In this document: positions 18,913 to 21,456 of the stretch, piece by piece
Numbering within the stretch: position 1 is the stretch's first letter
How the letters are laid out: each line of letters starts with the position of its first letter
Made by a program: the position numbers and the translations under genes
The notes under the pieces: generated by a model
Database searches by the model: none
What the model was told of the DNA's origin: nothing
The model's input: the letters and a program-made list of their open reading frames with translations, nothing else
Origin: a virus
Lineage: Duplodnaviria; Heunggongvirae; Uroviricota; Caudoviricetes
Virus record (IMG/VR): IMGVR_UViG_2534681833_000010
Length of the DNA: 47,819 nucleotides
Strand: one strand, 5' to 3'

Positions 18913-19503
<591 letters not shown>

Positions 19504-19559
19504 TTAACAGATTCTACGAGTTGTCATTTGTGACAGTATGCTCGCAATCGTAGTGATTA

Positions 19560-20099
19560 CTACCACCAACTGCTAGCTTTCTTCTCTCTAGCTTTTCCTT
19601 CGCTTTGCAGTAAATCTTTACTTCCTGTAGAAATATTTCTATTTGCATCAGCCTCAGACTGAATTACATCTGTCTTAGCTGCTCTCTCCTTCAACTCCTG
19701 CTCTATAAAATCGTTTTCTCGCTGGACACGAGCCGCTTTTGCTTGCAGTTCGAGTTTCATGCTTTCGAGTTGCAGCTTGCGAAGCTCATCCTCATAAGCT
19801 TGATCTCGCTTCTTGTCATTTGCTAGCTCGGCTTCTCGTTTCGCTCTACGTTCATTTTCTGCAGCAACACGCTGTTTTTCGCGTGCAGCAGCGGCAGATG
19901 CTGCTTTTTCTCTTCTAATACGTTCAGCTTGTGCTTGTTGGCGAATAAGTTCTTTTCTGGCATCCTCAGCTTGCTGCTCTTTAGCTCGCCCTTCATTTTC
20001 CGCTTGAGCAATAGCAGCAATTTGACTTTGCAACGAGTTAGCCAAGGCAGTGCCTACACTAAACGTAGAAAAGATTAGAAATAAAATAATTTTATTCAT
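19560..20099 (-). CDS. secreted coiled-coil protein (TolA-like Ala/Glu/Lys/Arg-rich repeats)
   Basis: N-terminal signal peptide MNKIILFLIFSTFSVGTALA then highly charged helical repeats (EQQAEDARKELIRQQAQAERIRREKAASAAAAREKQRVAAENERRAKREAEL); AT-rich codon usage. Confidence 0.5.
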   Translation of the reverse strand: MNKIILFLIFSTFSVGTALANSLQSQIAAIAQAENEGRAKEQQAEDARKELIRQQAQAERIRREKAASAAAAREKQRVAAENERRAKREAELANDKKRDQAYEDELRKLQLESMKLELQAKAARVQRENDFIEQELKERAAKTDVIQSEADANRNISTGSKDLLQSEGKAREKKASSWW

Positions 20100-20102
20100 A
20101 AA

Positions 20103-20615
20103 TTATTTCTTTTCTGGACAAGTAGCATTTGGCTGAATTCGAGTTTCATTATCTTTAGTTGAAATAAGCACAGCAAGCCCCGTTGTAAACTGGCATGCTT
20201 TACCAACTTGAGTTGAAGTGAACACCTTAGTTCCTTCTTTATAAGTCAGTGAAACACCTTCAACAATTGTTTTATCACTAACCAAAGAACCAGCCGCTGC
20301 ACCAAGAGCCGCACCACCAGTACCGCCAGCTACAGCACCCAGTGTCGATGTGCCTTTAACATTATAACCGGCAACGCCCCCAGCAACAGCTCCCAGTACC
20401 GCACCAAATGTCTGTGCCGCTTCTTTATTAGCTTTATTATCAACTTTCACTTTAGCTGGAAGCACAGAGATAATATTGACTGTCTTTGTTTCCTGCTTCG
20501 AATTCAATTGAGCGGTATCATAAACATCGGCAGCATAATCAGCACCGCTAGATTGACACCCAGAAAGAAGAATTGCAGATACAACAAGAGCGCATAAAGT
20601 ATACTTTTTAGACAT
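20103..20615 (-). CDS. glycine-zipper lipoprotein
   Basis: Lipobox LLSGC after hydrophobic signal (MSKKYTLCALVVSAILLSGC); Gly/Ala zipper (GAVLGAVAGGVAGY..GAVAGGTGGAALGAAAG); 3 nt upstream of the coiled-coil gene. Confidence 0.5.
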   Translation of the reverse strand: MSKKYTLCALVVSAILLSGCQSSGADYAADVYDTAQLNSKQETKTVNIISVLPAKVKVDNKANKEAAQTFGAVLGAVAGGVAGYNVKGTSTLGAVAGGTGGAALGAAAGSLVSDKTIVEGVSLTYKEGTKVFTSTQVGKACQFTTGLAVLISTKDNETRIQPNATCPEKK

Positions 20616-20905
20616 AAGAATCATCCCAGAAAAACAAAAACCGGCGAGAAGTTACCACAAGAACGGAAAGTAAACAAGAATACTCCCATTGACTTATATC
20701 AATTAATCAACTTTTTATAAGCTATCCCTAACTTATTGTGTATAGCTGAAAAGTCAGAGACAAGTTCACCATCTGCATTATTTCTTAAGTTAATAGTTTA
20801 TTGCTAACTTAATTTATGTATCGACTATTGATATCCATCTTAAAGTTACAATATCCATCTGCATTATTTTTCATCACAAATAATATATCTATTGCACGAC
20901 ACTAA

Positions 20906-20922
20906 TCTGCTCTAATAAATTT
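20906..20922 (+). promoter_or_regulatory. C1 repressor operator (Op51-like)
   Basis: TCTGCTCTAATAAATTT matches P1 C1 operator consensus ATTGCTCTAATAAATTT at 15/17. Confidence 0.65.
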
Positions 20923-20960
20923 GTATTTTTAAGTCGCGAATGCTATCTTTTTGCATCATA

Positions 20961-20989
20961 TTGACCTTTTAATCGTTCAGGCTTATAGT
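20961..20989 (+). promoter_or_regulatory. sigma70-type promoter (P51b-like) for immunity operon
   Basis: TTGACC, 17-bp spacer, TATAGT. Confidence 0.5.
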
Positions 20990-21091
20990 TTCGCCGTCGT
21001 AGCAAATTCTGCGACCGGGTTTAGCAGCCTGAATACTTACGCGGACAACCGCAGATTTCCGATATTGCGGTATTTTTGTGTCCGTAAACCA

Positions 21092-21175
21092 CGTTACGCC
21101 CGAATTATGGTGGGGCGTGATGGGGAGGCTTCGGCCTGCTGGTTTCGTAAGTGCCAGTCTGCTAACCCCGTCACG
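21092..21175 (+). ncRNA. c4: c4-like antisense repressor RNA (coordinates approximate)
   Basis: Noncoding stretch between promoter and icd; segment GTCTGCTAACCCCGTC complementary to repeated target motifs GGGTTTAGCAGCC (21017-21029) and GTTTAGCAGCGGG (21186-21198) flanking it, as in P1 c4 control. Confidence 0.4.
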
Positions 21176-21234
21176 TCCTGCCACCTGTTTAGCAGCGGGT
21201 CGCAGGTTGTTTATCAACTTACGAGGCCGTAACT

Positions 21235-21456
21235 ATGGTTAATGCCAATCCTTGCGCACGCCAAGAATTCATCTGGCGTTTCTATTCCTGCAAAAAACAC
21301 CACTATCACTTCGTCATCGCAGCAACAGAAGACGAAGCACGCTCTCAATTGCCTGATGGCCCCTGCATTTTTACTGCCCGTTTTTCAACTAACTCGCGCA
21401 ATTCACTTAGTTACTGGAACCTCCCCTTCTCTGCCGACGTTCAGGGGGTTTTATGA
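21235..21456 (+). CDS. icd: Icd-like small protein (cell-division interference) translationally coupled to ant
   Basis: 73-aa ORF whose stop overlaps the ant start (ATGA); target repeat immediately upstream. Confidence 0.45.
   Translation: MVNANPCARQEFIWRFYSCKKHHYHFVIAATEDEARSQLPDGPCIFTARFSTNSRNSLSYWNLPFSADVQGVL

Follow-up and report, generated by a model that had tools for sequence, protein, structure and literature searches.

The outer-membrane lipoprotein SlyB is induced by stress and forms rings around outer-membrane proteins and lipid, the structures of which have been solved (PDB 7OJF/7OJG). YfgH of Escherichia coli is likewise an outer-membrane lipoprotein, which is induced by defects in outer-membrane biogenesis; its loss leads to sensitivity to sodium dodecyl sulfate and ethylenediaminetetraacetic acid (SDS/EDTA), while its overexpression rescues knock-downs of outer-membrane biogenesis (bioRxiv 10.64898/2025.12.22.696046; PMC3219608). 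It interacts with many outer-membrane proteins, and the neighboring gene yfgI is not mentioned in that study (bioRxiv 10.64898/2025.12.22.696046). The orthologous pair in Salmonella Typhi is regulated by SdiA (PMC11619404). In phage P1, superinfection exclusion is attributed to sim (Kliem and Dreiseikelmann 1989, as cited in PMC8546580 and PMC9177967), and a survey of P1-like phage-plasmids counts simABC among eight regions of variable content and low GC (PMC9603915). The window analyzed here is the whole stretch of 47,819 nucleotides of the Caudoviricetes record IMGVR_UViG_2534681833_000010. In this window a two-gene module was identified which, by homology, is a paralog of the enterobacterial core operon yfgH-yfgI (b2505-b2506) and which lies in an exchangeable cassette at the position that is occupied by simABC in P1.

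The first gene of the pair (20103..20624, minus strand) is of the upf50.5 type. Based on its open reading frame (ORF), its lipobox and its homology, it encodes a lipoprotein of 173 amino acids of the YfgH/SlyB glycine-zipper family, predicted to reside in the outer membrane. The true start is likely the ATG at 20615 (MSKKYTL...), resulting in a protein of 170 amino acids. The lipobox LSGC is located at residues 20-23, with Cys23 as the acylated residue and a glutamine at position +2, and residues 74-112 contain dense GxxxG/A repeats. In the alignment of 58 homologs of the family Cys23 is invariant, as are the glycines G74, G78, G82, G104, and G108. Helices were predicted in the AlphaFold model at residues 64-88 and 94-113, and the Pfam family Glycine zipper 2TM was matched with an E-value of 0.0023, under its cut-off. 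The protein is 100% identical to Upf50.5 of phage P7 and shows 67% identity over 171 amino acids to YfgH of E. coli K-12. A family profile of the lipoprotein gave a full-length match to SlyB in the solved structure 7ojf (E 1.4e-9), and a Foldseek search with the low-confidence model of the lipoprotein returned SlyB as the top and sole significant match (E 2e-6, TM-score 0.48-0.57).

The second gene (19560..20099, minus strand) follows after a spacing of 3 nt and is of the upf50.0 type. According to the ORF, Pfam and AlphaFold2, it encodes a secreted DUF5384 (YfgI-family) protein of 179 amino acids, for which a single long alpha-helix is predicted. The match to Pfam DUF5384 (PF17358) reaches 147.8 bits against a cut-off of 25 (E 3e-43) and covers the profile positions 4-145 of 145. 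The N-terminal signal peptide ends with ALA↓NS, and a signal peptide of 20 amino acids is annotated for Upf50.0 of P7, to which the protein is 100% identical; the identity to YfgI of K-12 is 47%. The mature protein consists of 19% alanine and 41% charged residues. AlphaFold2 predicts one continuous helix from residue 3 to 178 with a mean predicted local distance difference test (pLDDT) score of 86.7, which at ~0.15 nm per residue would give the mature protein a length of about 23 nm. A search among solved structures revealed no relative of this protein.

Among 1.84 billion representatives, the small DUF5384 family accounts for 316 clusters at 50% identity. Conservation in the family is concentrated in a short motif at the N-terminus (SLQxQLSAVAQAE) and a C-terminal domain of 85 residues ending in an aromatic pair, and the stretch rich in Ala, Glu, Lys, and Arg is a spacer of variable length and the least conserved part of the family. 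A kinship to TolA was rejected, since no TolA family was found among the Pfam and NCBIfam matches at E-values up to 0.1 and the resemblance is confined to this variable spacer. Most of the near-full-length members (154 of 213) end in WF, WW, or FF, and 4 of the 213 run on into a C-terminal transmembrane segment followed by Lys-rich residues. From these ends we infer that the C-terminus of the DUF5384 proteins may sit at the inner membrane.

In all of the 13 other loci that were inspected, the DUF5384 gene comes directly after the lipoprotein gene. These loci include the chromosomes of K-12, Xenorhabdus, Pantoea, and Citrobacter, an E. coli genomic island, a second allele from P1-like plasmids, a conjugative plasmid of Vibrio, a 7.5-kb ColRNAI plasmid as well as two contigs of ~100 kb each. 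The two contigs, from Salmonella and Enterobacter hormaechei, carry diverged pairs with PHROG-positive neighbors and show no megablast match to any phage record. Such a strict pairing across chromosomes and plasmids suggests a portable, general envelope function. When 5,426 complete E. coli genomes were searched for distant DNA matches, a copy with ~69% identity, annotated as yfgH-yfgI, was detected in 5,420 genomes and a near-identical copy of the phage pair in 182. The strict pairing of YfgH and YfgI, together with the predicted helix of periplasm length, makes it advisable to study YfgI together with YfgH.

In several databases the genes carry other names. The lipoprotein is called "DNA methyltransferase" in the RefSeq records NC_050152 (P7), NC_042128 (RCS47), NC_031129 (SJ46), and NC_019445 (TL-2011b) as well as in PHROG 1277, and the record of phi456 names the gene pair "minor tail protein" and "tail tip protein." A lipobox, a glycine zipper and the homology to YfgH and SlyB speak against these labels; the methyltransferase label is therefore judged to be wrong, and both it and the tail labels of phi456 look like propagated misannotation.

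The region 19400-21300 shows 98-99.6% nucleotide identity to phages and phage-plasmids of the P1 family, namely P7, RCS47, SJ46, JL22 and several records named P1. Judged by its sequence, the window is a P7-like punavirus, i.e., a phage-plasmid of the P1/P7 type. The annotation of P7 can be transferred directly onto the window, in which the two genes correspond to upf50.5 and upf50.0. In a blastn comparison with P1, Ro157c2YLVW, and 673R5, ~97% identity was observed until 19531-19536 and ~94% identity again from 20887-20908, with no match in between; the homology to P1 breaks at 19531/19532 and 20907/20908. As the homology to P1 breaks on either side, the gene pair together with its AT-rich leader constitutes a single exchangeable cassette (19532..20907, minus strand), which occupies the "sim slot" of P1-like phages. 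Between the same points and on the same strand P1 carries simA-simB-simC, and Ro157c2YLVW carries genes for two unrelated proteins of 215 and 158 amino acids. Six of the seven cargo proteins (SimB, SimC, the two proteins of Ro157c2YLVW and the two proteins described here) start with a signal peptide, and in the seventh, SimA, the signal peptide follows an N-terminal extension of nine residues.

A rough census was obtained from PLSDB, in which 506 plasmids encode a P1-type PmgC at an identity of at least 95%. The lipoprotein was found in ~188 plasmids at an identity of at least 80% (163 at least 99%), SimC in 140 and the full 215-amino-acid protein in 84; these counts come from separate searches and do not form a strict partition. 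With ~188 of ~506 P1-type PmgC plasmids carrying its gene, the lipoprotein represents conserved cargo.

Another observation concerns simA itself. Past its nine-residue extension, SimA of P1 (52 amino acids; locus L002, 3771-3929) matches the N-terminus of the 215-amino-acid protein of Ro157c2YLVW (locus L014, 2167-2814), and the same SimA-type fragment of 48 residues is present in many PLSDB plasmids. The gene simA looks like a 5′ remnant of the 215-amino-acid gene, which was left when simBC replaced most of it.

The GC content at the third codon positions (GC3) of the lipoprotein and DUF5384 genes is 0.24 and 0.31, compared to 0.46-0.51 in the flanking phage genes; E. coli yfgH and yfgI show values of 0.43 and 0.49. 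In the same slot of IncY P1-like plasmids (pLR-25_1) a second allele was identified, whose proteins share 84 and 80% amino-acid identity with those of the window and whose GC3 is low as well. Relative to this 84% allele, the ratio of non-synonymous to synonymous substitution rates (dN/dS) is 0.06 and 0.04 with dS being saturated, and the flanks of the two alleles are ~96% identical. Low dN/dS and saturated dS next to such similar flanks argue that both alleles are old, functional and exchanged as units. Both genes are real, as seen from the DUF5384 score (147.8 bits vs. 25), from the 100% identity to proteins in P7 and other phage records and from the dN/dS of 0.04-0.06. This strong purifying selection together with the low GC3 (0.24-0.31) indicates that the cassette is functional and foreign. 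The donor lineage was not identified, as the closest chromosomal DUF5384 proteins among species representatives (Xenorhabdus, Pantoea, Citrobacter) are 51-55% identical.

These data also bear on the explanation that the cassette is a passive hitch-hiker, i.e., captured foreign DNA without a function for phage or host. It would fit the low GC content and the position in a known variable region, and it is nevertheless highly improbable in view of the dN/dS of 0.04-0.06 across a saturated synonymous divergence. Moreover, both ORFs are intact, the encoded proteins are 100% identical across P7-like phage records, the lipoprotein is conserved at an identity of at least 99% in 163 plasmids, and the slot has retained a second allele that diverged long ago.

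The 84% allele is accompanied by an additional gene (pLR-25_1; locus L011, 3889-5148) encoding 419 amino acids with N-terminal hydrophobic segments and KPL-type repeats. Its product is membrane-anchored and has a nuclease-like domain of the DUF559/REase_MTES_1575 type. It looks like a defense-type gene that was added to the same slot.

The identity of slot, orientation and breakpoints with those of simABC, the superinfection-exclusion determinant of P1, and the secreted cargo in all three slot types are arguments for a role in superinfection or surface exclusion, in which the cassette would functionally replace simABC of P1. This explanation, the main alternative to the one favored below, is possible, but we consider it rather less than probable. 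Here, P1-like or other phages would be stopped at adsorption, tail penetration or DNA transit by an outer-membrane ring of the lipoprotein, perhaps together with a rod that spans the periplasm, and conjugative DNA might be blocked too, by analogy to the ring-forming lipoprotein TraT of F plasmids. The DUF559/REase-like gene adjoining the 84% allele suggests a competition hotspot, and the many outer-membrane proteins contacted by YfgH make a contact with a receptor possible. In addition, TraT itself is a precedent of a chromosomal ring lipoprotein that was co-opted by plasmids (PMC11733297). The similarity of the lipoprotein to TraT is partial and sub-threshold: alignment of the lipoprotein family with a single TraT sequence by hhalign gave 90% probability (E 1.5e-6) over 73 columns of a Gly/Ala-biased region comprising the hairpin and beta structure, whereas the Pfam TraT family (PF05818; E 7e-5) was matched with 23.1 bits, below its cut-off of 31, and the Foldseek comparison with TraT was not significant (E 0.35).

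The original prediction had named the two envelope proteins as candidates for superinfection exclusion or immunity. Superinfection exclusion gains circumstantial support from the breakpoints shared with P1 simABC, and no sequence similarity to Sim was found. BLASTP against SimA, SimB, and SimC gave nothing better than an E-value of 0.18, and the PHROG families differ. PADLOC reported no match, by which a known defense system was rejected. Furthermore, P1 adsorbs to the lipopolysaccharide core and not to a protein receptor. Chromosomes and non-phage plasmids carry the same module too, and excluding phages is not its obvious role there; a position in a variable region is equally typical of unrelated cargo (PMC9603915). 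A more specific form of the exclusion model, which we regard as doubtful, would combine the ring lipoprotein and the 23-nm rod into a trans-envelope device, co-opted by P1-family phage-plasmids from a host stress module as a Sim-independent superinfection/surface-exclusion system, so that the sim slot would be a three-way (or wider) exchangeable locus for envelope-acting exclusion cassettes. F plasmids, which co-opted TraT from the chromosome, would offer a parallel. In such a device, the ring would lie in the outer membrane and the aromatic or membrane-anchored C-terminus of the rod at the inner membrane. If exclusion were true, a new mechanism built from a host stress module would be at hand, with relevance for P1 transduction and phage therapy.

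Upstream of the lipoprotein gene, an AT-rich leader (20625..20905, minus strand, ~30% GC) travels with the cassette and is characterized by its composition, direct repeats and an FNR-like box. The tract 20625-20950 (326 bp) has a GC content of 30.4% compared to 47.8% for the 47.8-kb window, and sliding windows of 326 and 1391 bp both reach their lowest GC content here, with a fraction of 0.0025 and 0.0019 at or below these values. The leader contains a 15-bp exact direct repeat CCATCTGCATTATTT at 20769-20783 and 20855-20869, 86 bp apart, and a second exact direct repeat ATATCCATCT at 20831-20840 and 20851-20860. A regulator might bind these repeats, and their conservation in the 84% allele is only partial. 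The FNR-like box at 20689-20702 reads TTGATATAAGTCAA on the gene strand and has one mismatch to the FNR consensus; the aligned position in the 84% allele is a perfect FNR match (TTGATATACATCAA) inside the best-conserved upstream block. As FNR-like matches are not enriched in the window (5 vs. 2.55 expected), the box is a lead only. Promoter consensus sites were no more frequent in the leader than in shuffled sequence.

Directly next to the leader lies the C1 repressor operator Oc4/Op(c4) (20906..20922, plus strand), which has two mismatches to ATTGCTCTAATAAATTT. It marks the right edge of the cassette, belongs to the backbone and is also annotated at the matching place in P7 and P1; at this match level five C1 operator sites are found in the window vs. 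0.24 expected. The best σ70-like candidate on the minus strand is weak, and its -35 element at 20891-20886 is located 15 bp from the operator, so that C1 could repress it in lysogens. This distance speaks for a helper of the lytic cycle: synthesized soon after infection or induction, the pair would hold the outer membrane together until programmed lysis or resist lysis from without, or it would act as a spanin-like pair. A lipoprotein next to a periplasmic helical protein also superficially recalls two-component spanins, and a PHROG match to an Rz-like spanin was obtained (E 0.038). Nevertheless, this explanation is improbable: the weak promoter candidate is not preserved in the 84% allele, the genes lie outside the lysis cassette among tail and immunity genes, and their closest relatives are core host genes. 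A spanin pair of the Rz/Rz1 type was rejected on topology, size, and location, since the partner has a cleavable signal peptide where an i-spanin would have an N-terminal membrane anchor, the lipoprotein is of the SlyB type with ~150 amino acids and not a short proline-rich o-spanin, and the sole PHROG spanin match lies over the signal peptide region.

The explanation favored here, to which we assign an even chance, is that the cassette is an envelope-stabilizing or -remodeling module for lysogenic conversion, which would act like YfgH. It is favored because, at 67% identity to YfgH, the phage lipoprotein is expected to have the same molecular activity. The phage-plasmid acquired this paralog of yfgH-yfgI horizontally, and the exchangeable slot in which it sits has the late promoter LPsit on one side and, on the other, the C1 operator that belongs to the c4 immunity operon. 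The lipoprotein would be exported, lipidated at Cys23 and, having no aspartate at position +2, sent to the outer membrane, where its glycine-zipper helical hairpin would insert into the membrane. As solved for SlyB and modeled for YfgH, it would oligomerize into rings that hold outer-membrane proteins and lipid under stress. The DUF5384 protein would be secreted by the Sec pathway and form a helical rod of ~23 nm, probably with its conserved, aromatic-ended C-terminal domain towards the inner membrane and its conserved N-terminal motif towards the lipoprotein. Made from the plasmid prophage on top of the host yfgHI, the pair would reinforce or remodel the envelope of the lysogen. The result would be a lysogenic conversion benefiting the carrier cell, with a hindrance of incoming phages as a possible extra effect. 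If the stabilization of the outer membrane is true, these widespread phage-plasmids, many of them with resistance genes, would raise the tolerance of their hosts to detergents, bile, or antibiotics.

Several points weigh against this envelope-stabilizing role. Host yfgHI is already present in 5,420 of the 5,426 E. coli genomes, so simple complementation is not the benefit, and a diverged second copy rather suggests an altered function. The slot otherwise holds sim, a proven exclusion determinant, which favors the exclusion explanation. Ring formation of YfgH was modeled as SlyB-like, not shown (bioRxiv 10.64898/2025.12.22.696046), and the AlphaFold model of the phage lipoprotein is poor (pLDDT 54.6), wherefore only its match to SlyB was used. 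For YfgI, the sole recorded phenotype is the sensitivity of a mutant to nalidixic acid (PMC3536626). Finally, the candidates from a custom σ70 scan of the leader were all weak, without conservation in the 84% allele, and no convincing terminator was found for the gene pair.

To the left of the gene pair lies the late tail-tube operon (sit, tubC/pmgB, tubB/tub, tubA/pmgC), driven by the late promoter LPsit (~19511-19530, minus strand), which forms the left edge of the cassette and belongs to the backbone; its coordinates were taken from the P7 and P1 annotations via alignments. To the right, the C1 operator of the c4 operon is followed by the C4 antisense RNA, icd, ant1/2, kilA, and repL. The Rfam scan gave no match inside the cassette and only the known C4 elements on its right, i.e., the C4 RNA at 21103-21188 and its a1b1 target c4-a1b1 at 20983-21035. 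The original prediction for 19560-20950 agrees with these results in most respects. It had placed the locus between a virion operon and a c4/icd/ant module, which is in line with the P7/P1 annotation and Rfam, and had described a very AT-rich upstream region of ~330 bp, which turned out to be a 326-bp tract at the GC minimum of the window. The proposed glycine-zipper lipoprotein was recovered with its LSGC lipobox and the GxxxG/A repeats at residues 74-112, and the secreted Ala/Glu/Lys/Arg-rich helical protein with its signal peptide and its high alanine and charged content. The horizontal acquisition it had suggested received support from the codon-usage check (GC3 of 0.24/0.31 vs. 0.46-0.51 in the neighbors). 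Its resemblance to TolA holds for the composition and not for kinship, as the protein belongs to Pfam DUF5384 without a TolA match and the stretch in question is the least conserved one. The paralogy to yfgH-yfgI and the existing P7 annotation of upf50.5 and upf50.0 had been missed.

Two further features were observed on either side of the cassette. A sub-threshold Rfam match to the Hfq-binding sRNA isrK (20996-21077; 47.9 bits vs. a cut-off of 50) overlaps the a1b1 leader of c4. A strong, conserved hairpin (19480-19526, minus strand) with 18-nt arms (z -5.2) is located between the cassette and the start codon of pmgC, and the minimum free energy of the 101-nt stretch holding it is -34.6 kcal/mol. 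It overlaps LPsit, appears to sequester the Shine-Dalgarno sequence GAGG of pmgC, belongs to the backbone and is also present in P1. This hairpin could block read-through from the cassette or control the translation of the late leader.

Related pairs were also observed elsewhere. The small mobilizable ColRNAI plasmid pYLMB10c (7.5 kb; locus L012, 3118-6210) carries a yfgH-like gene (77%) and a DUF5384 gene (54%), with a gene for a phosphoethanolamine transferase and an IS1 immediately upstream of the pair; the DUF5384 gene is absent from the PLSDB gene table. On an E. coli contig near torT/torR (locus L017, 3104-4378) a diverged yfgHI pair (73%, 50%) adjoins a PLDc_2 gene of the phospholipase D/cardiolipin-synthase type. 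This neighbor deserves attention, as mutations in clsA suppress the phenotype of a yfgH deletion (bioRxiv 10.64898/2025.12.22.696046).

The module was also considered as cargo of other phage families, which was rejected. The sole non-P1 match in the phage collection, TL-2011b, is host flank (yfgG-yfgH-yfgI) inside the record, and the IMG/VR matches with 66-69% identity (L040-L101) are all situated at or near contig ends and represent host flank as well. The E. coli island that adjoins P2-like tail genes probably has the same explanation. The TL-2011b record and dozens of contigs predicted to be prophages terminate within the host genes yfgG-yfgH-yfgI or shortly after them. This pattern points to the integration of prophages beside yfgI, with the host flank being included in "viral" records.

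Part of this picture has been available before: the GenBank annotation of P7 lists the cassette genes and notes that they resemble membrane proteins of E. coli, and the variability of the slot has been published. New are the exact cassette boundaries, the three-way pattern of secreted cargo and the strict pairing of YfgH and YfgI, and also the prediction of a rod with its likely orientation and the analysis of selection.

Compared to the described systems, the cassette shares with simABC, the superimmunity genes of P1, the slot (LPsit/pmgC to Oc4), the strand, the breakpoints, a transcription divergent from c4 and secreted products. In contrast, the experimental exclusion phenotype belongs to Sim, to which the cassette described here has no detectable similarity. 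TraT, to which F-like plasmids owe surface exclusion and serum resistance, resembles the phage protein as an outer-membrane lipoprotein in which a helical, Gly/Ala-rich membrane hairpin precedes beta strands, and as a chromosomal protein co-opted by mobile elements; it differs in being ~70 amino acids longer, in its extracellular ring domain and in acting alone. The central domain of TolA is a long periplasmic Ala/Glu/Lys-rich alpha-helix, as is predicted for the DUF5384 protein, which has neither the N-terminal anchor nor the C-terminal domain of the TolA type. SlyB and the phage lipoprotein share the architecture of a lipoprotein with a glycine-zipper hairpin and a beta-domain, whereas the sequence identity is ~24%, SlyB has no DUF5384 partner gene and rings of the YfgH branch have only been modeled. 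From E. coli YfgH-YfgI the phage copy differs by its location on a phage-plasmid, its lower GC3, an unrelated upstream region and its presence in addition to the host copy. Both pairs have in common the gene order and the tight coupling, the lipobox and the glycine zipper as well as the signal peptide, two invariant cysteines in the C-terminal domain and the aromatic C-terminus.

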